In this document: one piece after another, positions 175 to 48,273 of the stretch
How positions within the stretch are numbered: the stretch's first letter is position 1
Layout: each line of letters starts with the position of its first letter
Sequence record: SRR31156797_647
Length of the DNA: 51,355 nucleotides
Reading direction: 5' to 3' (one strand)
Notes under the pieces: model-generated
Databases searched by the model: none
What the model saw: only the letters and a program-made list of their open reading frames with translations
Told to the model about the DNA's origin: nothing
Translations under genes and position numbers: made by a program

Positions 175-1116
175 TTAGCCGTGCAAATCAAGCTCATTTA
201 GCATGTATAAGGAGTGTTCAACGGTTTTAAAAATTTCGGAACAATACTCATTTACTGCTTTTGGACTCCCTGGCATAGCATAAATCAAAGTTTTATTCAT
301 AACACCGGCAATTCCCCGACTAACCAATGCATTTGCTTTCTCCATACCATATTTCACACGAATTAATTCCATGATTCCTGGAATTTCTTTTGTGATGTGC
401 TTTTGTACAACTTCAGGGGTGATATCTTTTGGTCCAATCCCAGTTCCTCCTGTTGTAAGAACCATATCATACTCTTCCTCTTTTGCTATATTTAGTAGTT
501 CCGATAATTTTACTTCTTGATCAGGAATGATATGCTTATCAATGGTGTAATGGCGATTTCTTGATTTCAAAAAATCTTCACACAACTTTTCAGCTAATGG
601 ACCGCTTTTATCTGCATATTCTCCTCTGCTGGCTCTATCGCTTAGTGTAATTATCATTGTTTTAATTACACGAGGCTTGTAGGTTAAAATATCTCCAGCT
701 TTTAGTTCTCCATCTTTCAATACTCTACAGAAAATACCTTCTTTTGGCATTACACAGTTTCCAATTTCTCTAAAAATGCTACAATTATCACCATGACATT
801 TTTTACCTATTTGAGTTACCTCAAGTTCCATATTACCAAGTGTGAATTTATCAAGAGGAGCGGTATGGTGTAGCAAGAGTCCTTCGGTAGTAATATTCTC
901 GGCAAATTCTCCAAAGTCGATTTTTCGTTTGGCTTGTTCTGAGAATTTATCAATACTTTCTTTGGCAAGTAAACTAACTTGTCGGTGCCAATTTCCTGAG
1001 TGTGCATCTTTAGCAACTCCTATAGAATTTAATTCTATTTTATCAACTGGCTTTTTAACGGTTCCTTTTTTCTCAGATATATTTACAGAGAGTACTGCTA
1101 CTTCTTTAATGCTCAT
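175..1116 (-). CDS. MOSC-domain / MogA(MoaB)-type molybdopterin adenylyltransferase fusion
   Basis: N-terminal MOSC motifs (DAHSGNWHRQVSLL, FAENITT, LEVTQIGKKCH). C-terminal MogA motifs (TLSDR, TTGGTGIGPKDITPE, MPGSPKAV). Confidence 0.9.
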   Translation of the reverse strand: MSIKEVAVLSVNISEKKGTVKKPVDKIELNSIGVAKDAHSGNWHRQVSLLAKESIDKFSEQAKRKIDFGEFAENITTEGLLLHHTAPLDKFTLGNMELEVTQIGKKCHGDNCSIFREIGNCVMPKEGIFCRVLKDGELKAGDILTYKPRVIKTMIITLSDRASRGEYADKSGPLAEKLCEDFLKSRNRHYTIDKHIIPDQEVKLSELLNIAKEEEYDMVLTTGGTGIGPKDITPEVVQKHITKEIPGIMELIRVKYGMEKANALVSRGIAGVMNKTLIYAMPGSPKAVNEYCSEIFKTVEHSLYMLNELDLHG

Positions 1117-1130
1117 GGTTTCTGTATTTC

Positions 1131-1586
1131 TTATTTCAAATCTGTTTTTGTTTTCTCCTGAAGTGTAACTTGTCCTATTACCATATTTTTATCAACAGCT
1201 TTACACATGTCGTAAATGGTAAGTAGGGCAACGCTAGCTGCGGTTAGAGCTTCCATTTCAACTCCTGTCTGTCCAATGCATCGCACTCTGGTGTGTACTT
1301 TAACACCATTCTCAACAATAGTACATTTTACTTCTGCTTTTGTGATTTGCAAACTGTGGCAAAGTGGTATTAAATCGCTGGTTTTTTTTGCAGCTTGAAT
1401 TCCTGAAATCTCGGCAATAGTTAAAACATCACCTTTTTTCATCGAGTTCTCCTGAATCAACTTAATGGTTTCGCTTTCTAATTGGATTACTCCAGTAGCT
1501 TTAGCTTCTCTAATTTGTGGAGTTTTATCGCCCACATCTACCATGTTAGCTTTTCCTTCATTGTCTATATGACTAAATTTCCCCAT
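1131..1586 (-). CDS. moaC: cyclic pyranopterin monophosphate synthase MoaC
   Basis: MVDVGDK, LIPLCH, TGVEMEALT and YDMCKAVD motifs. Confidence 0.96.
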   Translation of the reverse strand: MGKFSHIDNEGKANMVDVGDKTPQIREAKATGVIQLESETIKLIQENSMKKGDVLTIAEISGIQAAKKTSDLIPLCHSLQITKAEVKCTIVENGVKVHTRVRCIGQTGVEMEALTAASVALLTIYDMCKAVDKNMVIGQVTLQEKTKTDLK

Positions 1587-1601
1587 CTTATTTTCAATTT
1601 A

Positions 1602-2402
1602 TTAACCACCAATACCATAAAAGCTTCCTTTTTTATTTTTGGTTCCAGCTTCAGGTTTTTGATTTATAGATTTATCGATTGCTTTCTTAGCACCCAATTG
1701 TTTTAAATCAAATTCACTCTGATTGAACAAGCAAGGTTTTACTTTGCCATTGGCAGTCAGCCTGATTCTATTGCATTCCTGACAATTACCACCTTTACCG
1801 CCCTCAACAATCGAAAACTCGCCGGTAGCCAAATCCATTTGCTTGATAAAACGCAAATCCAGATCATTTTGAGAACAATATTTTCTGAGTGCTTCAATAT
1901 CATCAAGATCGGCATCAGGCATACGAACACAATTTATTTTTACAGGATGTAAGCCTGCATTTTTAGCTGCCTTAATTCCTTTAAAAACATCTTCGATATC
2001 ACCTAAACGAGTAATTGTTTTGTATTTTTCGGCATTTAGAGTATCTAAACTGATATTTACTCGGTTTAAACCAGCTTTAGCTAAATCTGCAGCATATTTT
2101 TCCAGCAAAATACCATTTGTAGTCATTGCCAAATCTTTAATGCCCGGAATTTGTGCAATTTGTCGAACCAAATCGATAATTCCTTTTCTTACTAAAGGCT
2201 CGCCACCAGTTAATCTAATTTTATTGATTCCGGTTGAGACAGCCTCTTTTATAAAGTCTACAATTTGCTCAAAACTTAAAACCTCTTCATGAGCAATTAA
2301 GTCAATACCTTCCTCAGGCATACAATAGGTGCAACGTAAATTACACCTATCGGTAACCGAAATTCTCAGGTAGTTGATATTTCTTTTATAATTGTCTAAC
2401 AT
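1602..2402 (-). CDS. moaA: GTP 3',8-cyclase MoaA (compact form, 266 aa)
   Basis: YLRISVTDRCNLRCTYC radical-SAM motif, second cluster CxxCNRIRL...KPCL, C-terminal GG. Start placed at ATG 2402 (MLDNYKR), overlapping the moeA end. Confidence 0.92.
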   Translation of the reverse strand: MLDNYKRNINYLRISVTDRCNLRCTYCMPEEGIDLIAHEEVLSFEQIVDFIKEAVSTGINKIRLTGGEPLVRKGIIDLVRQIAQIPGIKDLAMTTNGILLEKYAADLAKAGLNRVNISLDTLNAEKYKTITRLGDIEDVFKGIKAAKNAGLHPVKINCVRMPDADLDDIEALRKYCSQNDLDLRFIKQMDLATGEFSIVEGGKGGNCQECNRIRLTANGKVKPCLFNQSEFDLKQLGAKKAIDKSINQKPEAGTKNKKGSFYGIGG

Positions 2403-3561
2403 GTACAAATTCTCCTTCGGTAAATTCGTCAACTTCTCGCGGAACAGCCATAATGCCGTCAGCAAGTGTAAATGCATTTATATGAGCTGATCCATGATAC
2501 TTTATTGGAACCACGCGGTTGTTTGCATTAAATCGAACAGGAATGAACTCGAGTCTGTCGGTTCTTTTCCTCTTATAATCTTGAGAGATTGGCATTCTTA
2601 CCATTGGTGCATTATAATTGTGACCCATCAATCGGTACAGTAACGGCTTACCCAATAGTTCAAATTGAACAAATGATGAAACGGGATTTCCTGGCATGCC
2701 GAATACATATTTTCCATCTTTGGCAGCAAACACAGTATGTTTACCGGGCTTAACTGCTAATGTGTGAAACCAGATGTTAAAACCGAGCTCTTTAAGTATT
2801 TGTGGGACATAATCGTAATCTCCAACAGAAACGCCACCGGAAATGATTAAAATATCATTTTCTTCAATACATTTTATCATGGCTTCTTTAGTTGCTTCCT
2901 TGGAATCCGAAACAATGCCTTGATAATTGCCCTTTATTCCCATTTTTTGCAATTGAGCTTGCAATTGCCATGAGTTTACATTTCTAATTTGCGATTGATT
3001 TGGTTTCTCATGAGGCTCTACCAACTCACTTCCTGTTGCAATTGTAGCTACTTTAGGTTGTTTGTATACCAGAGGTTTAGTACAACCAACTGTTGCTAGC
3101 ACAGAAATGTGTTGAGATTTTAAACGTGTTCCTTTGCTAAGAACAACATCATTCTCTTTAATATCTTCTCCTTTTATGCAAATATTTGATTTTGAATCCT
3201 CTTTTGTGAAACGAATTAAGTTGTTGTCTAATTCTTCTGTGTGTTCCACCATAATCACCGTATCAGCACCTTCAGGAACCATAGCACCAGTCATAATTTT
3301 TGAGCACTGCTTGTCACCAATTGGTATACTTGGTGCGGTACCTGCAGCTACAACTTCAAGTACTTTAAGATTTTCCTTTAAATCTGATTTCTTGCAGGCA
3401 TATCCATCCATTGCCGATTTATTAAATGGAGGAATGAACATGTCAGAACAAACATCTTCAGCCAAAACACGATTTAGACAATCGGAAATATCAATGTGCT
3501 CCTTTTCCAATTTTTTTGTGGCATGTTTAACCGTTTTTAGAGCTTCGTGAAAGGTAATCAT
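2386..3561 (-). CDS. moeA: molybdopterin molybdotransferase MoeA
   Basis: PPFNKSAMDGYA, IMTGAMVPEGAD, SGGVSVGDYD and MPGNPVS motifs. Confidence 0.95.
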   Translation of the reverse strand: MITFHEALKTVKHATKKLEKEHIDISDCLNRVLAEDVCSDMFIPPFNKSAMDGYACKKSDLKENLKVLEVVAAGTAPSIPIGDKQCSKIMTGAMVPEGADTVIMVEHTEELDNNLIRFTKEDSKSNICIKGEDIKENDVVLSKGTRLKSQHISVLATVGCTKPLVYKQPKVATIATGSELVEPHEKPNQSQIRNVNSWQLQAQLQKMGIKGNYQGIVSDSKEATKEAMIKCIEENDILIISGGVSVGDYDYVPQILKELGFNIWFHTLAVKPGKHTVFAAKDGKYVFGMPGNPVSSFVQFELLGKPLLYRLMGHNYNAPMVRMPISQDYKRKRTDRLEFIPVRFNANNRVVPIKYHGSAHINAFTLADGIMAVPREVDEFTEGEFVHVRQL

Positions 3562-3565
3562 ATTG

Positions 3566-4108
3566 TTAGTTTTTTATCACCCATTTATTACTTGCAAATT
3601 TTATCAAAGCTGGATCAAAGTTGAATGTGTCACCATTAAATTCAATTTCGCGATCAGCTAAAAGTAAATGTTTTTCGGTTTTGGGTTTTGTTTGGTTATT
3701 GTTTTTATTTTTTAACATTAAAAATAGTCCTGGCGTAAGCAGTTCTCTTAATCCGCCCGATTCAATTATTACAGGTGTATTACTCTTTATAAATTTATCA
3801 AAAAAAGAGAGAACTTCAGACAAATATTTATCTTTGGTTTGAACAAAGTAAACTGCATCACTTCCAGCTTTTAGCATTCTGTTGCTATCCTTGTTGTATT
3901 CTGTTGTTGTCTCTTTAGTAATTGTAAAATTTTCAGTCTTTTTTAAAATCAAGGTTTCTGATTTTAATTCATGAAAGTGCGGGCAGATTTTAATACTAAT
4001 AATAGTATGTTGATCTTTTAGCTGATCAATCAATTTACAAGCAAAAAGTGTTTTTCCAACATCTTGACCTGTTCCTGCAATTAGTAGTATGTTCTCTCTC
4101 AATTCCAT
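3566..4108 (-). CDS. P-loop protein, MobB-like; first gene of the pterin-cofactor operon
   Basis: N-terminal Walker A-like GTGQDVGKT, a VIIESG Walker B-like strand, and operon position. Confidence 0.6.
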   Translation of the reverse strand: MELRENILLIAGTGQDVGKTLFACKLIDQLKDQHTIISIKICPHFHELKSETLILKKTENFTITKETTTEYNKDSNRMLKAGSDAVYFVQTKDKYLSEVLSFFDKFIKSNTPVIIESGGLRELLTPGLFLMLKNKNNNQTKPKTEKHLLLADREIEFNGDTFNFDPALIKFASNKWVIKN

Positions 4109-36944: not shown

Positions 36945-38144
36945 TTACTTGTACAATTCTTTTAAACGATTTGCCATTCCTTCGGCAAGTGCTGCACACT
37001 GGTCGAAATTTTCGCTGTTTGGAGCACAAAGAGCTTCCGGTGTAGCTTCAATGGTTTCCCATTTAATTGCTTCAGCAAATTTATTCAATCGCTTAAGACC
37101 TCCGCCTCCCCACGATTTTGAACCAAACACACCAAGAACGTGATCTTTAACGCCCATATGTTCCAATTCATTAATTAAAGTCTCCATGGTTGGGAAAACA
37201 TCTCCGTTATATGCACAACTTCCTAAAATTACACCTCTAAATCTAAAGATATCATTAATGATATAAGATGGGTGTGTTTTAGAAGAATCGTGAATACGAA
37301 TTTTTTTGATGCCTCTTTTTACCAATTGGCGAGCGATATTGTCTGCCATCTTTTCAGTATTTCCATACATCGAAGAATAAACAATAACACAACCTTCATC
37401 GGTTTTGTACTGGCTCCACTTGTCATATTTAGCAACAATATCAGCAATGTGTGTTCTCCAGATTGGACCGTGAGTAGCACAAATCATTTTGATATCTAAA
37501 CCACCTAGTTTCTTAAGTGCATTTTGAGTTGGACGACCATATTTTCCTACAATATTTGAGTAATAACGGCTAATCTCTTCTTCAAGGTAATCTAAATCTA
37601 ATTCATCATCGAAAATACCACCATCAAGAGTACCGAAAGCACCAAACGCATCACCAGAGAAAAGAATTCCATTGTTCGATTCGAAAGTTACCATGGTTTC
37701 TGGCCAGTGTAACATTGGAACCATATGGAAATTTAACATGTGTTCTCCCAAATTTATTTGATCTCCTTCTCTTACTTCCAAAAGGTTTGCTTTAATTCCG
37801 TAGAAACGTTCTAACATTGGGAATGTTTTTTTGTTTCCAACGATTTGCATTTCCGGGTAGCGCTCAACCAAAGAACGAATCGATCCGGAGTGATCTGGCT
37901 CCATGTGATTCACAATTAGGTAATCTGCCTTACGTCCATCAAGAACTTCTTCGATATTATCTAAATATTCATCCATTGTACCTTTTTCAACAGTATCTAC
38001 AATGGCAACTTTTTCATCAACGATAACATACGAGTTGTAGGCAACTCCTTTAGGTAGTGGCCAGTAGTTCTCAAAAATGTGGGTTCTACGGTCATTTGTT
38101 CCTACCCAAAAAATCTTGTCAGTAATGTTGGTTTTGTTGTGCAT
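36945..38144 (-). CDS. fprA: flavodiiron protein (A-type flavoprotein, NO/O2 reductase family)
   Basis: HMEPDH, HWPE, SGDAFG and HGPIW diiron motifs; SMYGNT flavodoxin loop. Confidence 0.95.
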   Translation of the reverse strand: MHNKTNITDKIFWVGTNDRRTHIFENYWPLPKGVAYNSYVIVDEKVAIVDTVEKGTMDEYLDNIEEVLDGRKADYLIVNHMEPDHSGSIRSLVERYPEMQIVGNKKTFPMLERFYGIKANLLEVREGDQINLGEHMLNFHMVPMLHWPETMVTFESNNGILFSGDAFGAFGTLDGGIFDDELDLDYLEEEISRYYSNIVGKYGRPTQNALKKLGGLDIKMICATHGPIWRTHIADIVAKYDKWSQYKTDEGCVIVYSSMYGNTEKMADNIARQLVKRGIKKIRIHDSSKTHPSYIINDIFRFRGVILGSCAYNGDVFPTMETLINELEHMGVKDHVLGVFGSKSWGGGGLKRLNKFAEAIKWETIEATPEALCAPNSENFDQCAALAEGMANRLKELYK

Positions 38145-38349: not shown

Positions 38350-39021
38350 TTATTGTTGAAGAAGCCTGATAAGCTTTCGTTTGTTTAGGATTTTTATGTC
38401 TCTTCTATTGGTTTCAATAAGTCCTTCTTGTTCCATTTCTTTAAGACTACGTGCAAAGGATGGTCTTGTAACACCAAAAAATTGTGCCATTTCAGATTGC
38501 GATTTAGGCAGAGTAATTTCTGTTTTATCGGGCGCAGCTAGTTTTAATAGATAGTTAGCCAACTTTCCTTTAATGGTTTTAAAGTTTAAAAACATGAGTT
38601 TATTAGCTAAAAATTGACTTCTATTCGAAATTAAATTCAGGTAATTGATGAGAAAAGTTTTATTATCCTGAAAAAGATCTACAACAGAAGCTTTTGCTAA
38701 TGAAAAAATCTCCACATTATCATTTGCGGTTACATTTACCGGGAATTGATTTCTCTGACCAAATAAAAATGCAGAAGCAATAGGATAGGGTGCCATAATA
38801 TCCTCAATTTTAATGCTTTTTCCTGATGGGTCAAGCATTTCTCCTTTTACGCTGCCTTGTAACACTATCATTAAATTTTCGCACCTGTCTTCCCTAAAGG
38901 CAACCATATCGCCTTTTGTATATTTTTTAATTTGATATTGAGCATTATTAAGAAGTATTTCCAGTTCTTCAGGATTTATCCCTCTGAAGACTGGCGATTG
39001 AGATAGTTGTTGATAGAGCAT
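38350..39021 (-). CDS. Crp/Fnr-family regulator, HcpR-like
   Basis: cNMP-fold domain plus HTH with GVTRPSFAR recognition helix, adjacent to fprA. ATG at 39021. Confidence 0.85.
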   Translation of the reverse strand: MLYQQLSQSPVFRGINPEELEILLNNAQYQIKKYTKGDMVAFREDRCENLMIVLQGSVKGEMLDPSGKSIKIEDIMAPYPIASAFLFGQRNQFPVNVTANDNVEIFSLAKASVVDLFQDNKTFLINYLNLISNRSQFLANKLMFLNFKTIKGKLANYLLKLAAPDKTEITLPKSQSEMAQFFGVTRPSFARSLKEMEQEGLIETNRRDIKILNKRKLIRLLQQ

Positions 39022-39154
39022 TACTGTTGTCTTAAATATTTCCTCAATAATAAGGCTTTCCAATCAATCTTCAAATAGTAAAAGAGGAAATTGTCTTTTT
39101 ATTTAATGAATGAGTTATTTGAATAAAAAAGATACTCATTTACTCTTTAATTAT

Positions 39155-41407: not shown

Positions 41408-43696
41408 TTAACGAAGAAGTGCTACGTTTCCTTTTTTTAGAATAGATCGACCATCTAAATAGGTTACTTCCAAAACATAAATGTAAACATCTATATCCTG
41501 CAATTCACCTTTGAAAAAACCATCCCATCCAGTATTTATACTCTTGGTTTCAAATAGTTTTTGCCCAAGCCTGTTGTAAATAATAAGGGTAGCTTCCTTA
41601 AAATCGGAACCTCTAATGAATAATTTATCATTGTGCCCGTCTCCATTAGGAGAGAAAGCTTTTGGTAAGCCAACAAAAGGATAATCTTCTACAAATCCTA
41701 CTTCAATACTATCTTTTGCGGTACAATTGAATTCGTTGTTTACTTCCACCCAGTAAATTCCTTCTGTATTGACAGATATTTTCTGAGTGATTTCACCTGT
41801 AGACCATGTGTAAAAACAGTTTGGCGTTCCTGCATCAAGAACGATTCCTTTATCAGGATAGGAAATCAGATCTTTTCCCAAATTTACTTCGGGAACAGGT
41901 AGTACTTCAAGGTCAATGCAACTTGTTTCAATATTGCCATTGGCATCACTTACTTCAACACAGTATTCTCCATCTTCTTTTAAATAAATTTCAGGTGAGT
42001 ATTGATTTAAATTAACCCAGTTGTAGGTAAGAGGATAAACTGGATTACCTTCAATCTGTGCAGTAATAAAAGCGGAATCGCCCTGACATATGGATCGGTC
42101 TTCGCCAAGAAATACTCCAAATTTTTGTCCATGTTTGTAATCTACAATAATAGTATCTTTATTCGAGCAGCCGTACTGATCTGAAACCTCAACAACAAAT
42201 ACACCACCGCTATTAATTGTAATTGTCTGAGTGGTTTCTCCATTGTTCCAAATGTAATCTGCTCCAGGATTTTGAGCATCTAAAACAGTTGTTTCTCCAT
42301 CCCAAAGAATCAAATCAGCACCTAAATCAATAATAGGATTCATGTGATAAGATATTTCAGTTTTGGCAGATTTTTTAAAGCCATCAGGATCGGTAACTAT
42401 AAGCTGATAAATACCTTCGGTATCAATCGGAATTGTTGATTCGGTTGAGCCTGTATTCCATTCATAAGTGTAATCTTGATCTATGGATAGACTTGGACTA
42501 AGTGACATTTTTTCTTCGCCACACATGTGAATTACATCTGGTAATTCAAGCGTGAAAAGATCTTCAGATGATTTAAATTTAAAGGATTTGCTAGTGGAGC
42601 ATCCTTGGGAAGATGTTTTTGTTACCGAATAGTCTCCAGATTTAGTGAAAGAATTGTAGCTATTAGTTGAACCATCACTCCAAAGGTAGGTGCATTCATT
42701 GGAATATATACTTATCGTATTTTCATCCTCTTCAAATGTTAAATAATCAGGAATATTTATTTCAGGGGATTTGACCTTTACCACCTGAACATTTGCTTTT
42801 ACAACTTGCTCATCAGTTAAATCGGTTACAGTTAGTTCGTAATTTCCTTGTTCGGATATATGAATCTCTTTGCTAGTAGCATCGGTATTCCATTTGAACG
42901 AATAGTCAGAAGGAAGATCAATTTCAGCTTGAAGTGTAATTTCATCTCCTTCACAAATGTACTTGGTATCACCTAAATCTACCTGAAACGATTTTACAAT
43001 TTCTACTCCAGCATAAATGGTATCGCTATTACACCCGAAAGCATCTGTTTCAATTAATTTTAAAATATGGTTTCCCTCTTTATCTGGCCATTTTAATTTA
43101 AGATCAATTTCTTTGTTGTATGCTGAAACCTCATTTTTATCATGAACCAATTTTGCACCATCAGGAAGTATAAATGAGTAGGATGAGTTTTTACCAATTA
43201 GAGCGGAATAGTTTTGTGTTGATTTTGTTTTCGCTTTCGGATAATAATCTTCTATTTCAGGAGCTGCAAGAGGTAAAACCTGAATGGTTGCAGATTCAGC
43301 TCCCTTTTCGATAGTAAGTGGCGTTAAATCTTCCAGCCAGGCTTCTTTTAATTCTAAAGTATAATCTTGAATTCTGTTGCTGAAATTTCTTAAGAAAAAA
43401 GAGATTTCATATTCTGAGTCCTCAATACCTTTATCTCCATTCAAAATCATTGCAGGACTGTTATTAATAGAGTAACTAACAAACCATTTTTTATTTTTTG
43501 GACCTTTAATGAGAAGTTTTATTTCTTGAGCCGACTCAACAATGCCATTATTTGCCGAGCAATACATAACTTGATAATCGGAATCTATTTTAACATGATC
43601 GGTTTGTGCAAGTAGCAAAAAGGGCGAATTCAGAAGAGTAAGAATTACAATAATTCTTTTGATTAAAGTACTAAATATGTTATTTGCATCTATCAT
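41408..43696 (-). CDS. T9SS type-B CTD (gliding-motility-associated C-terminal domain) surface protein with six Ig-like repeats
   Basis: C-terminal AFSPNGDGHND...IYNRLG...GWDG...KKGNVALLR; six repeats of about 70 aa with pattern LG.D..C...Y.W..G....I....G.Y.V.V. Confidence 0.88.
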   Translation of the reverse strand: MIDANNIFSTLIKRIIVILTLLNSPFLLLAQTDHVKIDSDYQVMYCSANNGIVESAQEIKLLIKGPKNKKWFVSYSINNSPAMILNGDKGIEDSEYEISFFLRNFSNRIQDYTLELKEAWLEDLTPLTIEKGAESATIQVLPLAAPEIEDYYPKAKTKSTQNYSALIGKNSSYSFILPDGAKLVHDKNEVSAYNKEIDLKLKWPDKEGNHILKLIETDAFGCNSDTIYAGVEIVKSFQVDLGDTKYICEGDEITLQAEIDLPSDYSFKWNTDATSKEIHISEQGNYELTVTDLTDEQVVKANVQVVKVKSPEINIPDYLTFEEDENTISIYSNECTYLWSDGSTNSYNSFTKSGDYSVTKTSSQGCSTSKSFKFKSSEDLFTLELPDVIHMCGEEKMSLSPSLSIDQDYTYEWNTGSTESTIPIDTEGIYQLIVTDPDGFKKSAKTEISYHMNPIIDLGADLILWDGETTVLDAQNPGADYIWNNGETTQTITINSGGVFVVEVSDQYGCSNKDTIIVDYKHGQKFGVFLGEDRSICQGDSAFITAQIEGNPVYPLTYNWVNLNQYSPEIYLKEDGEYCVEVSDANGNIETSCIDLEVLPVPEVNLGKDLISYPDKGIVLDAGTPNCFYTWSTGEITQKISVNTEGIYWVEVNNEFNCTAKDSIEVGFVEDYPFVGLPKAFSPNGDGHNDKLFIRGSDFKEATLIIYNRLGQKLFETKSINTGWDGFFKGELQDIDVYIYVLEVTYLDGRSILKKGNVALLR

Positions 43697-43889: not shown

Positions 43890-43905
43890 TGTAACATCGG
43901 TTACA
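43890..43905 (+). promoter_or_regulatory. Crp/Fnr (HcpR-type) binding palindrome TGTAAC-N4-GTTACA
   Basis: Perfect palindrome TGTAACATCGGTTACA, 21 nt upstream of a -7 element. Confidence 0.75.
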
Positions 43906-43926
43906 GTTTTTTTTTCGGTCTAGATC

Positions 43927-43934
43927 TACATTTG
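43927..43934 (+). promoter_or_regulatory. -7 promoter element (TACATTTG)
   Basis: TAnnTTTG 31 nt upstream of the ATG at 43966. Confidence 0.7.
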
Positions 43935-43965
43935 TACCAAGAAATCATTAAAAATCTGTTTCAAG

Positions 43966-45255
43966 ATGGAGAATCAATATTTTAAAACCACAGATAGTTT
44001 ATTTGAGATTTGTACGAAGTATCCGGAAACGGTAAAAATTTTCGTATCAAACGGATTCAAGCAATTAGAGGACGAAAAGAAAAGAGCTTTGTTTGGGAAA
44101 TCACTTTCTCTGGAAGTTGCTCTTAAAATGAAAAAATTAAATGTGGAAACCTTTACCGATTTATTGGTTGAGGGGATTGATTCGAATCGAGGTCAGGTTG
44201 ATGGTGATTTAAATCAGAAGACGAAAGAACAAAAGGAAGATTCTGTGCACGTTCAAGGTTTATTGCCTTGTCCGGTTCGAGTTCCTTTGGTTGAGGGAAT
44301 TGATTCTTTTATTAAAGGATACGAGAAGGAGCACAAAAATGAAATCGTATATGATTTAAAGGCTGCTTCGATGGGATTGGATTGGTTGATCGATGATGTA
44401 ATCAATCAGGATAATGCAGATAATTTGGCAGATATCTTTATCTCAGCAGGTTTTGATTTGTTTTTTGACGAAAAGTTGATGGGAAAATTCAAGAAGCAGG
44501 GTGTTTTTAAGGACAGTACTGGTTTCGATCGTTTGAACAAAGATTTTGATAATGATGAAATTTGCTTGAAAGATCCTGAAGGACACTACTCTATGATTGG
44601 TGTTGTTCCAGCAGTTTTCCTTGTGAATAAGGATGAATTAGGTGACAGACCAGTTCCTCGTACCTGGGCAGATATCTTTAAACCAGAATTTAAAAGAAGT
44701 GTAAGTTTGCCAATTAGTGATTTCGATTTGTTTAACTCTATGTTACTTCATATCTACAAAGCATACGGAGAAGAGGGAGTAAGGGGATTAGGAGCTTGTT
44801 TGTTGGAAAGCATGCATCCTTCGCAAATGGTAAAATCCCATACTAAAAAGAATCAAAAACCTGCCATTACAATTATGCCATACTTCTTTACCAAAATGGT
44901 AAAAGTAGGAGGACCTATGATTGCAGTTTGGCCTGAAGATGGAGCAATTATCAGCCCGATTTTCATGTTGACTAAAGAGGATAGATTAGATAAAACACAG
45001 CCGGTTATCGATTTCTTTGCTTCGGAAGGTGTTGGTGAGATTCTTTCACACCAGGGATTGTTTCCAAGTATCAATCCAAAAGTAGACAACAGATTACCGG
45101 AAGAGAATAAATTCATGTGGTTAGGTTGGGATTACATCAATAGTAACGATATTGGTTCGTTAATTACAAAATGCGATGCTATCTTTAAAAAGTCCATACA
45201 GGATGAATCGTTTGCAAATATGGGACCTTTAAATTATTCTCCCAATAACGATTAA
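43966..45255 (+). CDS. substrate-binding-protein fold (AfuA/PotD-like) with an N-terminal DUF1858-like domain and no signal peptide
   Basis: PRTWADI and VWPEDGAIISP SBP motifs; LPCPVR; N-terminal EICTKYPETVKIFVSNGF; no hydrophobic leader or lipobox. Confidence 0.75.
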   Translation: MENQYFKTTDSLFEICTKYPETVKIFVSNGFKQLEDEKKRALFGKSLSLEVALKMKKLNVETFTDLLVEGIDSNRGQVDGDLNQKTKEQKEDSVHVQGLLPCPVRVPLVEGIDSFIKGYEKEHKNEIVYDLKAASMGLDWLIDDVINQDNADNLADIFISAGFDLFFDEKLMGKFKKQGVFKDSTGFDRLNKDFDNDEICLKDPEGHYSMIGVVPAVFLVNKDELGDRPVPRTWADIFKPEFKRSVSLPISDFDLFNSMLLHIYKAYGEEGVRGLGACLLESMHPSQMVKSHTKKNQKPAITIMPYFFTKMVKVGGPMIAVWPEDGAIISPIFMLTKEDRLDKTQPVIDFFASEGVGEILSHQGLFPSINPKVDNRLPEENKFMWLGWDYINSNDIGSLITKCDAIFKKSIQDESFANMGPLNYSPNND

Positions 45256-45288
45256 TTATTAAACACTAACAGAAAAACAAAACCAGAT

Positions 45289-45996
45289 ATGAACTTAGTT
45301 ACAGTTTCAGGACCTCCATCATCAGGAAAAACAGCGGTGATTTTGAAGACCATTGATTCGTTTCAGAAACGCGGATTGGAAGTTGGAGTCGTAAAATTTG
45401 ATTGTCTTTATACCGATGATGATATTTTATATGAGAAAGCAGGAGTTAAAGTGAAGAAAGGCTTATCTGGCTCTCTTTGTCCTGATCATTATTTCGTAAG
45501 TAATATCGAGGAAGTTACTCAGTGGGGAATTAAGGAAGGCTTGGATATTTTAATTACTGAGAGTGCAGGTTTGTGTAACCGTTGTTCTCCTTATGTGAAA
45601 AGTGTAACTGCAGTTTGTGTGATTGATAATCTAAGTGGTATCAATACACCAAAGAAAATCGGACCCATGTTGAAATCTGCAGATATTGTGATCATTACCA
45701 AAGGTGATATTGTTTCGCAAGCAGAGAGAGAAGTATTTGCATCGAGAGTGAATACAGTGAATCCTGGAGCAAGCATTATGCATGTAAATGGATTAACGGG
45801 GCAGGGAGCTTATGAGTTGAGTACTTTATTATACGATGAAAAAATTGAGGTGAAAACTTTAGTAGGTGAGAAGCTTCGATTCTCAATGCCATCGGCACTT
45901 TGTTCATACTGTTTAGGCGAAACCCGAATTGGTGAGAGTTACCAAATGGGTAATGTTCGTAAAATTGATATGGAAGATAAGAAGGGGAAAAAGTAA
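45289..45996 (+). CDS. G3E-family (HypB/UreG/CobW-like) Cys-rich GTPase
   Basis: GPPSSGKT, KFDC, LCPDH, ESAGLCNRC, TKGD and C-terminal LCSYC. Confidence 0.85.
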   Translation: MNLVTVSGPPSSGKTAVILKTIDSFQKRGLEVGVVKFDCLYTDDDILYEKAGVKVKKGLSGSLCPDHYFVSNIEEVTQWGIKEGLDILITESAGLCNRCSPYVKSVTAVCVIDNLSGINTPKKIGPMLKSADIVIITKGDIVSQAEREVFASRVNTVNPGASIMHVNGLTGQGAYELSTLLYDEKIEVKTLVGEKLRFSMPSALCSYCLGETRIGESYQMGNVRKIDMEDKKGKK

Positions 45997-46028
45997 TAAG
46001 GAGAAAGTAACAAATTCCAATTCACTTG

Positions 46029-46048
46029 CCATCTGCTTTAGCAGATGG
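46029..46048. repeat. REP-like intercistronic hairpin
   Basis: Perfect stem CCATCTGC-TTTA-GCAGATGG with no U tail on the coding strand. Confidence 0.5.
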
Positions 46049-46065
46049 ATTAAAAAAGCAACAAC

Positions 46066-47094
46066 ATGATCACAATACAAGATATACAAGATAAAACAAT
46101 TGCCGATTTGTTCGAGGAGTATCCATTTCTTCCAGGGTTTTTCGAAGAGAATACTTTGGAGGTTGATGGACAGATTAACGAAAAGTTGGATGATTTCCTT
46201 AATATTCTAGAGGACGAAGAAGAGAAGGAAAATCGTGCAATGGATAAGGTTCAGGTAATGAATTCTATGACAGAATACATTAGCCAAATGTTACAATTTT
46301 TGGGCGAAGATGAGGATGAAGGTGTAAATAGCATCACCTTATTGCCAGGAACAAATAAATCTGGAGAAAGAGAAGAGTTTGGTGAGTTAACCATTAATAA
46401 AAGTGAGATTGTTTGTATTGTAGGTCCTACAGGATCGGGAAAAAGTAGATTGTTAGCAGATATTGAGTGGGTAGCTCATAACGATACGCCAACATCAAGA
46501 ACCGTTTTAGTGAATGGTGAAAAAGGAGATAAGAAATGGCGTGTGACATCAGGTCATAAATTGGTAGCTCAGTTATCTCAGAACATGAACTTTGTTATGG
46601 ACCTTTCGGTTTATGAGTTTATTGAATTGCATGCGCAAAGTCGATTGGTTGAGGATGTGGAAGGCGTGATCATGAAGATTTTTGATCAGGCAAATAAGTT
46701 GGCTGGTGAGAAATTTAGTTTAGATACTCCAATTACCAGTTTGAGTGGAGGACAGTCGAGAGCCTTGATGATTGCAGATACAGCGATCTTAAGTAAGTCG
46801 CCAATTATCTTGATTGATGAGATTGAGAATGCTGGTATCGATCGTAAGAAAGCATTGGAATTGTTGGTAGGAGAAGAGAAAATTGTCTTAATGGCAACTC
46901 ACGATCCAATTCTGGCACTAATGGGTGACCGACGTATCGTAATTAAAAATGGTGGAATTCATAAAGTAATTGAAACCAGTGGAGAAGAGGAAAACCTATT
47001 ATCGGAACTGGAAAGAATGGATTCTGTAATACAGAACATGAGAACTCGTTTACGCCACGGAGAGATTATTCGTAAAGAAGACATTGGGTTTTAG
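46066..47094 (+). CDS. ABC-family ATPase with an N-terminal DUF1858-like extension; no cognate permease
   Basis: GPTGSGKS, LSGGQ, IILIDE and ATHD motifs; N-terminal TIADLFEEYPFLPGFFEEN. Confidence 0.85.
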   Translation: MITIQDIQDKTIADLFEEYPFLPGFFEENTLEVDGQINEKLDDFLNILEDEEEKENRAMDKVQVMNSMTEYISQMLQFLGEDEDEGVNSITLLPGTNKSGEREEFGELTINKSEIVCIVGPTGSGKSRLLADIEWVAHNDTPTSRTVLVNGEKGDKKWRVTSGHKLVAQLSQNMNFVMDLSVYEFIELHAQSRLVEDVEGVIMKIFDQANKLAGEKFSLDTPITSLSGGQSRALMIADTAILSKSPIILIDEIENAGIDRKKALELLVGEEKIVLMATHDPILALMGDRRIVIKNGGIHKVIETSGEEENLLSELERMDSVIQNMRTRLRHGEIIRKEDIGF

Positions 47095-47098
47095 TGTT

Positions 47099-47133
47099 GA
47101 ATTAAGAATTATCAATTAGAAATTAAGAATAAA
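47099..47133. repeat. degenerate heptamer tandem repeat
   Basis: GAATTAA GAATTAT CAATTAG AAATTAA GAATAAA. Confidence 0.5.
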
Positions 47134-47202
47134 AAAATAAAATCAGATTTTGAAATTGGAGGAGATCTTAAATTTCAAATCTATTAAAAGGAGGAAATAG
47201 TT

Positions 47203-47445
47203 ATGCATGACGGTTGCGCAGGAAGTTTCGAAAATGGACAACAAGTAGTTGACAAGGTAAGAATGATGGGTTTTGCTCAGCAATTGATGCCAATGCCTAT
47301 GGACATTGAGTGTCACGGATGTAAAGAAACCTTCACTATGGAAGAGTTCGAGGGACATTGCCCTAAATGTGATATGGTACACGGTGTAACACCTTGCCAT
47401 GCTTTCGATCCAAACAACATTATGGCTGCGGGTGTAGGATACTAG
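47203..47445 (+). CDS. small Cys/His-rich metal-binding protein (MHDGC start, CxxC...CxxC, TPCH)
   Basis: 80 aa; AAGGAGG at 47188-47194; CHGC and CPKC zinc-ribbon-like pair. Confidence 0.8.
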   Translation: MHDGCAGSFENGQQVVDKVRMMGFAQQLMPMPMDIECHGCKETFTMEEFEGHCPKCDMVHGVTPCHAFDPNNIMAAGVGY

Positions 47446-47498
47446 TAGTGACATGCCACGGCATGTCATTACGGATAAATGCCATGGCGTGTCCGTAC
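47445..47498. repeat. tandem GTAG-type REP palindromes
   Basis: GTAGTGACATGCC-AC-GGCATGTCATTAC followed by TACGGATAAATGCCATGGCGTGTCCGTAC. Confidence 0.65.
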
Positions 47499-47502
47499 AG
47501 AG

Positions 47503-47540
47503 AAATCCCAATAGAAAATTAACATCTGTTGGGATTTTTT
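47503..47540 (+). terminator. intrinsic terminator closing the 43966-47445 operon
   Basis: AAATCCCAATAGA/TCTGTTGGGATTT stem plus a T run. Confidence 0.75.
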
Positions 47541-47589
47541 GTGCGACATAATTAGTAAATTAGCCTTAATCTTTAAATTATATACAGAT

Positions 47590-48273
47590 ATGAATCTAAA
47601 TTTAGTTGATCAGTTAACCCTTCTTGCATTAGATGATGATAAGGGAAGTATTGTTGCGGACTCTTTCTCTTTTGGTTACGGATTGGCTGGGGCTGTAATT
47701 CTTGAATTATCCTTACAAGAAAGAATTGAGATTAAAGAGAAGAAGATAGAAGTAAAATCCAGTGCTAGTTGTAATGATATTTTATTGGATTACTTTTTGG
47801 ATATGATTCGCAATTCGAAAAAGAAAAGAAAGATTCAAACTTGGGTTGAGATGATGGGAAACAAGGCAGATCATATTAAGGATGAAACTGTAAACAAGCT
47901 GATAGATGATGGCATTTTAACCAGAAAAGAGGAAAAGATTCTTTGGGTATTTTCTAATGATAAATATCCGACCAAAAATGCCAAGCCCGAAAACGAATTG
48001 AGAAAACGCTTGAATGATATTCTTTTAAACCAGCGAGAAATTAGCTCAAAGGAAGCCATGTTGATTAGTCTTATTGATATGTGTGATCTTAATAAAGAAG
48101 TGTTTGGAAAAGAAAGAGCGAAGGAGTACAAAAAGAAGATAAAAGCAATTATTGAAGAAGCACAGCTAAGTTCCGAAGTAGGAAAAGCGGTGAAAGAAAT
48201 TCACGATGCTTTAATGGCTGTGGTCATCATGCTTATAACCACCTCAACTACAACAGCTGTAATTAGCAGCTAA
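47590..48273 (+). CDS. GPP34/GOLPH3-family protein
   Basis: LVDQLTLLALDDDKG...GLAGAVILEL...KILWVF...YP pattern. ATG at 47590. Confidence 0.8.
   Translation: MNLNLVDQLTLLALDDDKGSIVADSFSFGYGLAGAVILELSLQERIEIKEKKIEVKSSASCNDILLDYFLDMIRNSKKKRKIQTWVEMMGNKADHIKDETVNKLIDDGILTRKEEKILWVFSNDKYPTKNAKPENELRKRLNDILLNQREISSKEAMLISLIDMCDLNKEVFGKERAKEYKKKIKAIIEEAQLSSEVGKAVKEIHDALMAVVIMLITTSTTTAVISS

Follow-up and report, generated by a model that had tools for sequence, protein, structure and literature searches.

HypB/HypA and UreG insert nickel into [NiFe]-hydrogenase and urease, and binding proteins of the FbpA/FutA class hold iron with His/Glu/Tyr/Tyr ligands. We know of no established mechanism by which anaerobes assemble or repair the [4Fe-2S-2O] hybrid cluster and other iron centres sensitive to nitric oxide (NO). 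On the regulatory side, Rodionov et al. (2005) derived the HcpR2 consensus GTAACnnnnGTTAC from hcp upstream regions, and that paper predicts HcpR2 regulons of hcp alone in most Bacteroides and several other groups (PMC1274295). Here we describe a four-gene cassette at positions 43890-47540 of sequence record SRR31156797_647 (the window, meaning the whole stretch of 51,355 nt at 34.5% G+C) that carries the same box upstream. We put the probability at roughly one in two that the cassette encodes a cytoplasmic ATP/GTP-driven machine delivering or restoring iron or Fe-S centres, with Hcp as its likeliest client, a reading that draws on sequence comparison, structural models and analogy. The closest relatives of the window DNA are Marinifilum and Labilibaculum, at 88-94% protein identity, and our genome-wide statements are drawn from these relatives.

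The cassette consists of four co-oriented open reading frames (ORFs) on the plus strand, spanning 43966-47445. In order, they encode a DUF1858+SBP_bac_6 protein resembling substrate-binding proteins (SBPs), a cysteine-rich G3E NTPase, an ATP-binding cassette (ABC) ATPase and an 80-aa protein with six cysteines (Table 1). The four genes had been predicted to form one transcription unit, and they are indeed bounded by a perfect palindrome on one side and a strong hairpin with a U-run on the other; the latter, which none of 200 shuffles equalled in stability, is by sequence an intrinsic-terminator-like end. Scanning one genome per species with an SBP profile returned at least 447 confirmed stretches, and we kept the best 80 loci. 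Of the 67 sources whose downstream DNA reaches 2.4 kb or more (66 loci and the window; the other 14 are cut by contig ends), 65 have all four genes in the same order by tblastn, while L057 and L079 lack the small gene at E 1e-5. Record titles place the loci in Bacteroidota, Bacillota, Spirochaetota, Cloacimonadota, Fermentibacteria, Aminicenantes and others.

The palindrome, TGTAACATCGGTTACA, matches the published consensus GTAACnnnnGTTAC and is predicted to bind HcpR2, a Crp/Fnr-type, NO-responsive regulator. It had been noted, with a promoter, at the head of the unit, and it turns out to equal the published HcpR2 box, common to hcp and the cassette. Allowing two mismatches gave 3 matches in the window against 2.15 expected, so we place weight only on the single perfect copy and its position. 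Of 81 sources, 37 have an HcpR2 site with no more than one mismatch in the 200 bp upstream of the cassette. The site is kept in place in all 19 Marinifilaceae sources with upstream DNA, the window included, and recurs before the cassette in 18 distant loci, mostly Bacillota. A second site stands before an adjacent hcp in ten loci, and in four spirochaete loci the operon starts with an Rrf2 gene and the site lies before it.

Each of three Marinifilaceae genomes holds 2-3 copies of the perfect 16-mer, one before hcp and one before the cassette. A complete Marinifilum genome (G002, 4.8 Mb) contains five copies of the 14-nt core GTAACNNNNGTTAC, three inside ORFs and two intergenic, and the two intergenic copies precede hcp and the cassette, respectively. 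The cassette is accordingly predicted, in this genome, to be the sole regulon partner of hcp, and across the surveyed loci it would be a second, widespread member of the HcpR2 regulon. Promoter geometry is shared as well. In hcp and cassette promoters alike, the -7 box starts 29 nt past the site centre, as seen in the cassette promoters of three relatives and, with GATATTTG, in the hcp promoters of two. From this spacing, the site would sit near -41.5, an inferred position that fits a class II Crp/Fnr activator. The box TAcatTTG itself was named from the Bacteroidetes -7 consensus. As a separate observation on the core motif, G002 holds 5 copies against 18 of a reversed control pattern, and the core looks avoided there outside the two functional sites.

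The protein that reads the palindrome is likely to be a Crp/Fnr-family regulator encoded upstream of the cassette (Table 1). Its best solved relatives are 1o5l (E 2.5e-35), 9day, 1zyb and 5v30/6np6 (E 1.3e-16), and in five distant loci a gene of the same BLAST cluster sits on the opposite strand, 84-126 bp away from the cassette. An Rrf2-family regulator adjoins the cassette in 24 of 61 distant loci. The flavodiiron gene next to the window's Crp/Fnr gene forms with it a pair that is syntenic with the cassette in 12 close relatives. The flavodiiron protein had been suggested as a further client, a claim now left with family-level synteny alone: no HcpR2 box with up to two mismatches lies near its gene in the window, nor does the core precede it. 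We dropped it as a regulon member on this finding and on the remaining exact cores of G002, which are all intragenic.

The link to hcp extends beyond the promoter. A Prismane-family gene of Hcp length adjoins the cassette in 24 of 61 distant loci, and five of five Marinifilaceae genomes carry one hcp, placed away from the cassette. A neighbourhood survey had been named as a check on the original prediction; in it, the cassette is kept without a permease and is linked to hcp. To set this against background, we sampled 301 genomes of the order of G002 (Bacteroidales), in which all 12 carriers of a G3E orthologue (at least 326 bits) have hcp, compared with 148 of 301 overall. In the Clostridia, the class of a Tissierella carrier, the corresponding figures are 11 of 11 carriers (at least 412 bits) and 142 of 300, and seven further genomes with weaker G3E matches all have Hcp. 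Taken together, every one of the 23 sampled orthologue carriers has hcp, compared with 47-49% of genomes in the background. Hypergeometric P values are 1.6e-4 for the order and 2.2e-4 for the class, and they overstate independence because relatedness is ignored.

We assessed solubility from Kyte-Doolittle hydropathy in 19-residue windows with a threshold of 1.6. Maxima for ORFs 1-4 are 1.22, 1.04, 1.39 and 0.42, all below the threshold. In-frame stops lie 4-14 codons upstream of each start (14 for the SBP-like gene), which makes a hidden signal peptide impossible for all four proteins. The hydropathy test found no signal peptide, lipobox or hydrophobic segment in the SBP-like protein, and in all 16 aligned homologues the N-terminus is likewise a polar DUF1858 module. 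We then clustered the neighbour genes of the 80 loci and inspected the 30 largest clusters for a median of at least four transmembrane (TM) segments, which revealed no conserved TM-protein cluster beside the cassette. The sole cluster above this median is the ABC-2 permease of a separate exporter, found in Marinifilaceae only and equipped with its own ATPase. Of 56 loci with 1.5 kb or more on each side, four have a flanking gene on the same strand, within 400 bp, that encodes three or more TM segments; these four genes are unrelated and differ in size. Databases nonetheless call the cassette proteins 'ABC transporter substrate-binding protein' or 'ABC-type Fe3+ transport system'. Given the lack of a conserved membrane partner, this default annotation does not fit. 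The original prediction had said as much, and had held that the unit encodes no membrane protein; both statements agree with window ORFs that are soluble by hydropathy, relatives' loci without a conserved permease and an SBP-like protein without an export signal. A set of soluble genes with no membrane partner and a perfect HcpR2-type box leads us to predict that NO switches on the cassette together with hcp.

The SBP-like protein has an N-terminal three-helix DUF1858 module (residues 10-63, E 6e-15), a linker and an SBP_bac_6 domain (152-394, E 2e-84; Pfam). Its family shows 119 invariant columns in 16 sequences from several phyla. These include Cys102 of LLPCPVR (residues 99-105), within which lies the LPCP motif picked out from the sequence at the start. 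In an AlphaFold2 model (predicted local distance difference test, pLDDT, 83.7), a linker of low confidence joins the helical module at the N-terminus to a domain with two lobes. Residues ~90-413 of this model superpose on ferric-binding proteins with Z 21-22 and a root-mean-square deviation (rmsd) of 3.4-3.6 Å over 286-290 residues at 10-14% identity, and Foldseek matches the same proteins at E ~1e-12. Eight ferric-binding entries top the fold list, among them C. jejuni cFbpA, N. gonorrhoeae and H. influenzae FbpA, FutA1, KfuA, HitA and SfuA, so that the modelled domain is of the ferric-binding-protein fold. We also considered kinship of the N-terminal module with RIC/YtfE/ScdA, presuming DUF1858 and ScdA_N to be related; neither ScdA_N nor hemerythrin domains gave a match at E <=1 in 16 SBP-family members, and the candidate was set aside on the ScdA_N result. 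In published work, a DUF1858 gene by nirK in Bradyrhizobium is among the strongest NnrR-dependent genes (PMC6710368), and DUF1858 occurs in DrpB of Thermus nitrate respiration (PMC6282519) and fused to the Fe-S maturation factor SufT (PMC4982691).

The G3E protein matches the cobW/HypB/UreG family PF02492 with 50.9 bits (cut-off 20.7) and falls below the equivalog cut-offs for hypB (TIGR00073, 48.4 against 121.2) and ureG (TIGR00101, 27.2 against 204.2). Its nearest solved structures are UreG (5xkt, E 7e-6) and HypB (2hf8, E 2e-5). By these scores it belongs to a separate subfamily of the G3E-superfamily P-loop NTPases, one that is 75-85% identical across phyla. We counted seven cysteines (39, 64, 96, 99, 110, 205 and 208) where eight had been reported, while the motifs described with them are present as CPDH (64-67), CNRC (96-99) and CSYC (205-208). 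Walker A reads GPPSSGKT, CNRC is part of ESAGLCNRCSP, and TKGD (137-140) replaces NKxD, keeping the Asp and replacing the Asn. In 77 unique sequences, 49% of positions are at least 98% identical. They include the seven cysteines, CPDH, ESAGLCNRCSP, all four positions of TKGD and the C-terminal CxxC.

An intact ABC ATPase had been read from the third gene, and Walker A (G120-S127), the LSGGQ signature (226-230), Walker B (246-251) and the H-loop (H279) are all present and conserved in 74 unique sequences (ABC_tran, PF00005, 61.4 bits). The protein has an N-terminal extension of ~100 aa with a conserved YPF motif. DUF1858 was tried as an identity for this extension and rejected, with an hhalign probability of 0.4% and weak matches in 5 of 29 members (best E 0.015, not significant). 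Coupling of the ATPase to the G3E protein is evident from gene order. The two genes lie no more than 12 bp apart in each of 56 distant loci, and the median gap is -4 (a 4-bp overlap). A full HMMER scan of 1.84 billion representatives returned 553 proteins at E 1e-3, of which 88 reach E 1e-30; many are fragments. Among these proteins are two clusters of natural G3E-ABC fusions, one of five sequences of 509 aa and one of 11 sequences of 538-616 aa, each spread over several contigs and exemplified by metagenome proteins P0126 (509 aa) and P0127 (613 aa). Judged by spacing and fusion, G3E and ABC form a coupled core.

All the motifs first noted in the small protein were found: MHDGC, C37xxC40, C53xxC56 and P64-C65-H66. 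H2, C5, C37, C40, C53, C56 and C65 are invariant in 29 sequences, as is H-[DE]-G-C, although 8 of 68 aligned relatives carry 1-4 extra residues before the His. The Cys pairs resemble zinc-ribbon or rubredoxin-like knuckles. We considered HypA kinship, HypA being marked by an N-terminal Met-His-Glu nickel site and a zinc ribbon. Scores stay below threshold (PF01155, 19.9 against a cut-off of 28.9; TIGR00100, 18.4 against 88.1) and come from the Cys-pair region alone, and a profile of the 29 sequences finds no HypA among solved chains at E <=1. We therefore rejected this kinship, and the likeness is that of a generic zinc ribbon. The nearest named Atlas clusters are rubredoxin-like at 0.87-0.88, under the 0.9 line, and serve as a lead only.

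We found that the G3E-ABC pair also occurs in paralogous settings. A second tier of full-length G3E matches (181-261 bits) appeared in 24 genomes of the order-level search. In ten of ten such loci fetched, a G3E paralogue (37-49% identity) adjoins a short ABC ATPase paralogue (42-49%), and the G3E paralogues keep CPDH, LCxRCSP, TKxD and the C-terminal CxxC. All ten loci also encode a PF04060-type Fe-S protein and seven a NifS/IscS-like cysteine desulfurase, and the paralogous core occurs without any SBP-fold protein. One contig, L093, bears both modules together with hcp. Clostridia offer further variants. In one, G3E, ABC and SBP_bac_6-like genes are followed by a NifH-like and two NifD/K-like genes. 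Another, flanked by ArsR, combines a FecCD importer, complete with a dedicated ATPase and an exported-type Peripla_BP_2 protein, with a soluble SBP_bac_6-like protein, a methyltransferase, G3E and ABC. Two neighbours from variant operons were compared by profile with the SBP and small-protein families, and the similarity was weak and not significant. Selenocysteine was considered in a Clostridia G3E paralogue on account of a TGA reported within a match, and rejected, as the L103 ORF is uninterrupted and its stop codons fall at and just beyond the end. By sequence, this paralogy ties the hcp-linked cassette to sulfur-linked, nitrogenase-like and FecCD contexts. The ABC-G3E-NifS-FeS module seems to have its own regulator and signal. 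A palindrome like ACTGCAAAATTTCAGT (CTGC..N..TCAG) lies between a divergent Crp/Fnr gene and the module in L096 (7093-7250), L097, L102 and L094.

We propose the following sequence of events, in which the hand-over steps and their order are modelled on HypB/UreG and SufC. On sensing NO, HcpR2 would activate the cassette from about -41.5. The transferrin-fold protein could then hold iron or iron species freed from damaged centres, with Cys102 near the place of the first FbpA ligand. In place of a permease, the ABC ATPase dimer would act on the G3E dimer, and its ATP would be spent either on opening the binding protein or on powering a scaffold, in the manner of SufC with SufBD. The seven conserved cysteines of the G3E dimer would receive the metal or cluster, and GTP hydrolysis would free it for the client, by analogy with nickel transfer by HypB and UreG, while the small six-Cys protein may serve as adaptor or electron donor. 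The metal or Fe-S reading offered in the original prediction gains from paralogues beside a NifS-like desulfurase and a PF04060 protein and from the ferric-binding fold; the biochemical function stays a prediction.

Several points weigh against this proposal. NO induction, metal binding and the client are all predicted. Only 12 orthologue carriers occur among the 148 hcp-positive genomes of the Bacteroidales order; most hcp-bearing genomes do without the cassette, so Hcp does not generally need it. Conversely, one carrier (G311, a 2.7-Mb metagenome-assembled genome) has no Hcp at E 1e-80. Binders of pyridoxal phosphate (PLP), sugar phosphates, metal citrate, thiamin and polyamines share the ferric-binding-protein fold and come close behind in the fold list. 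Cys102 may lie about where FbpA has its first iron ligand (His9), given that residue 93 of the SBP model aligns to residue 1 of FbpA, a placement taken from aligned ranges and not from a residue-level alignment. At pLDDT 53.9, the AlphaFold2 model of the G3E protein is too poor to group its cysteines in space. The ABC domain is nearest to the nucleotide-binding domains (NBDs) of ordinary transporters (MJ0796, EcfA2 and BceA, ~50 bits), and no SufC model is among the best 25 of its 129 NCBIfam matches. Finally, the small protein is, by profile scores, not demonstrably HypA-like.

Other explanations account for part of the same evidence. The cassette could be a nucleotide-driven redox or activation system in which an Fe-S-bearing G3E dimer, like the nitrogenase Fe protein, and the ABC ATPase push low-potential electrons to Hcp or re-reduce its cluster after oxidation or nitrosylation, the rubredoxin-like protein being part of the electron path. 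Seven invariant cysteines in a SIMIBI-class NTPase would suit this role, as would the variant operon with NifH/NifDK-like genes and the lack of an Hcr-type reductase gene among the conserved neighbours of the cassette loci. A permease-less ABC ATPase, A2, is part of the ATP-dependent activation complex of methyl-coenzyme M reductase (MCR), which has an Fe-S electron path (PMC12176620). The Atlas clusters nearest the small protein point the same way, but score under the tool's line. Such a system would leave the transferrin-fold protein without a role, Pfam finds no flavin or NAD(P)H domain in the cassette, and paralogues beside a cysteine desulfurase argue for cluster building rather than reduction; we consider it unlikely. 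We give slightly less credit to general cytoplasmic metal buffering or trafficking under NO stress, independent of Hcp or iron, for instance recapture of Zn, Ni or Co displaced from thiolate sites, as with COG0523 proteins in zinc limitation. G3E membership is compatible with this, and so are the separation of cassette and hcp in 37 of 61 distant loci and throughout the Marinifilaceae, the variants by ArsR-type regulators and FecCD/Peripla_BP_2 importers, and the carrier without detectable Hcp. Against it, relatives' genomes already encode up to four ordinary COG0523-type proteins of 324-436 aa, the regulator site in G002 is shared with hcp alone, all 23 sampled orthologue carriers have hcp, and the partners of the paralogues are Fe-S proteins.

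Less probable again is a module for small-molecule handling or sensing, in which the SBP-fold protein binds a nitrogen-oxide-related or other ligand and the NTPases transduce or process it. The fold class does include the small-molecule binders listed above, S-adenosylmethionine (SAM) methyltransferases recur beside the cassette and its variants, and a cupin gene adjoins it in 14 distant loci. However, Pfam identifies no DNA-binding or signalling output domain in the four proteins, the paralogous core works without an SBP-fold protein, and the very high conservation of the Cys motifs suits metal chemistry better. The least likely rival, which we regard as highly improbable, is an ordinary ABC importer that would rely on a permease encoded elsewhere and on an unrecognised route for exporting its binding protein. 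Database transporter names and the kinship of the ABC domain with transporter NBDs would favour it. It is countered by the polar N-terminus without export features in all aligned homologues, the lack of a conserved permease in 56 loci, the coupling or fusion of the ATPase gene to the G3E gene, and the adjacent FecCD importer, which brings its own ATPase and exported-type binding protein.

Returning to a machine that delivers or restores iron or Fe-S centres, a broader version would place it in a new class of cytoplasmic metallocluster machines. These would be built on the ABC ATPase-Cys-rich G3E core, in which two unlike NTPases act as a single unit and are fused in some organisms, with varied donors and clients, and would form an insertion route for Fe-S or hybrid clusters beside ISC, SUF, NIF, SMS and MIS. 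Here the transferrin-fold protein would be the intracellular iron or cluster donor for Hcp under NO stress, and elsewhere the core would be served by a cysteine desulfurase and a PF04060 Fe-S protein, or by nitrogenase-like enzymes. We offer this extension tentatively. If the proposal is true, the cassette would provide a defined four-protein system for testing metal-centre assembly or repair under NO stress, and a first cytoplasmic role for a transferrin-fold binding protein paired with a permease-less ABC ATPase. It would also link the cassette to an unexplained ATPase/GTPase/Fe-S trio beside coenzyme M and sulfur genes. The systematic mis-annotation as 'ABC-type Fe3+ transport system' is also corrected.

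Coordinates of the cassette, its signals and two related upstream genes are collected in Table 1. Near-perfect arms of 13+13 nt (GTAGTGACATGCC..GGCATGTCATTAC) form the hairpin that lies upstream of the terminator hairpin. A rule-based sigma-70/terminator scanner, ill-suited to Bacteroidota promoters, listed no terminator in the region and fewer promoter-like sites than in shuffles. Parts of the G3E, ABC and small-protein genes are represented in contigs of one RNA-Seq metatranscriptome (X17), and a 581-nt contig of run X16, whose RNA nature is a guess, bridges the ABC gene to the small gene; because DNA carry-over is possible in both, we used neither for expression or co-transcription. Over the 3' hairpin region of the small gene, an antisense ORF (47143-47511, 122 aa) looks spurious. 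Downstream, 47539-48273 encodes a GPP34 family protein (Golgi phosphoprotein 3 homologue, PF05719, E 2e-43). Because the TTG listed as its start overlaps the terminator, translation probably begins at the ATG near 47590. The divergent neighbour (41408-43696) encodes a 762-aa protein with Ig-like repeats and a CHU_C type IX secretion signal. It shares a 269-bp intergenic region with the cassette, and the HcpR2 box lies ~200 bp from its start. Farther away, at 175-4108 on the minus strand, is a molybdenum cofactor biosynthesis cluster (MOSC/MoCF_biosynth fusion, MoaC, MoaA-like radical SAM protein and MoeA).

Table 1. Features of the cassette and related genes in the window.
Feature	Position	Strand	Details
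Flavodiiron protein gene (ODP + flavodoxin domains)	36945-38144		Adjoins Crp/Fnr regulator gene
Crp/Fnr-family regulator gene, likely HcpR2	38350-39063	-	4.9 kb upstream of cassette; adjoins flavodiiron gene
Palindrome TGTAACATCGGTTACA, predicted HcpR2 site	43890-43905	.	Perfect 16 bp; centre 68 bp 5' of first ATG
-7 promoter box TAcatTTG, Bacteroidetes-type	43927-43934	+	Starts 29 nt past palindrome centre
SBP-like gene (ORF 1)	43966-45255	+	429 aa; DUF1858 + SBP_bac_6
G3E NTPase gene (ORF 2)	45289-45996	+	235 aa; PF02492
ABC ATPase gene (ORF 3)	46066-47094	+	342 aa; ABC_tran PF00005
Small Cys protein gene (ORF 4)	47203-47445	+	80 aa; six Cys
Hairpin without U-run	47445-47472	+	-18.6 kcal/mol, z -6.25; begins at small-gene stop codon
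Terminator-like hairpin + UUUUUU	47503-47543 (hairpin 47503-47537)	+	-20.1 kcal/mol, z -5.9

Compared with HypB/HypA and UreG, the cassette has a P-loop NTPase of the same superfamily and a small Cys-rich partner with a near-N-terminal His. CPDH sits where UreG has CPH, and a Cys follows just after Walker B, as in HypB. Unlike HypB and UreG, the cassette G3E protein lies far under their cut-offs and has seven conserved cysteines, TKGD and an additional CxxC at the C-terminus. It is coupled to an ABC ATPase throughout, in some cases as a fusion, and shares its regulation with hcp instead of hydrogenase or urease genes. The likeness to SUF is that of a permease-less ABC ATPase on soluble partners, with paralogues beside a NifS/IscS-like desulfurase and an Fe-S protein. 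The cassette differs from SUF in that SufB/SufD-like genes are absent and a G3E NTPase and a transferrin-fold protein take part. FbpABC/FutABC share the fold of SBP residues ~90-413 and the Pfam assignment SBP_bac_6, whereas the cassette protein, at 10-14% identity, has no export signal, an added DUF1858 module and no permease.

Methanogens carry a trio annotated 'ATPase / Ni2+-binding GTPase / COG2000 Fe-S protein' beside coenzyme M genes, whose role is given as unknown (PMC12068725). Compared by description, this trio is like the paralogous Bacteroidales module in make-up (ABC ATPase, G3E and Fe-S protein). The paralogous module differs from the cassette in having no SBP-fold or six-Cys protein, in the order ABC then G3E, in a short ABC without the N-terminal extension, in its upstream palindrome, and in being linked to sulfur genes rather than hcp. 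Our literature search found no paper describing the cassette; the supplementary site tables of PMC1274295, which lie outside that search, could list it. The cassette resembles the described HcpR2 regulon in carrying the GTAACnnnnGTTAC box, found before both cassette and hcp, and in having a Crp/Fnr regulator nearby. New in comparison are the two-member regulon in a complete genome, the identical promoter geometry, the 23/23 co-occurrence with hcp, the G3E-ABC fusions and the paralogy.

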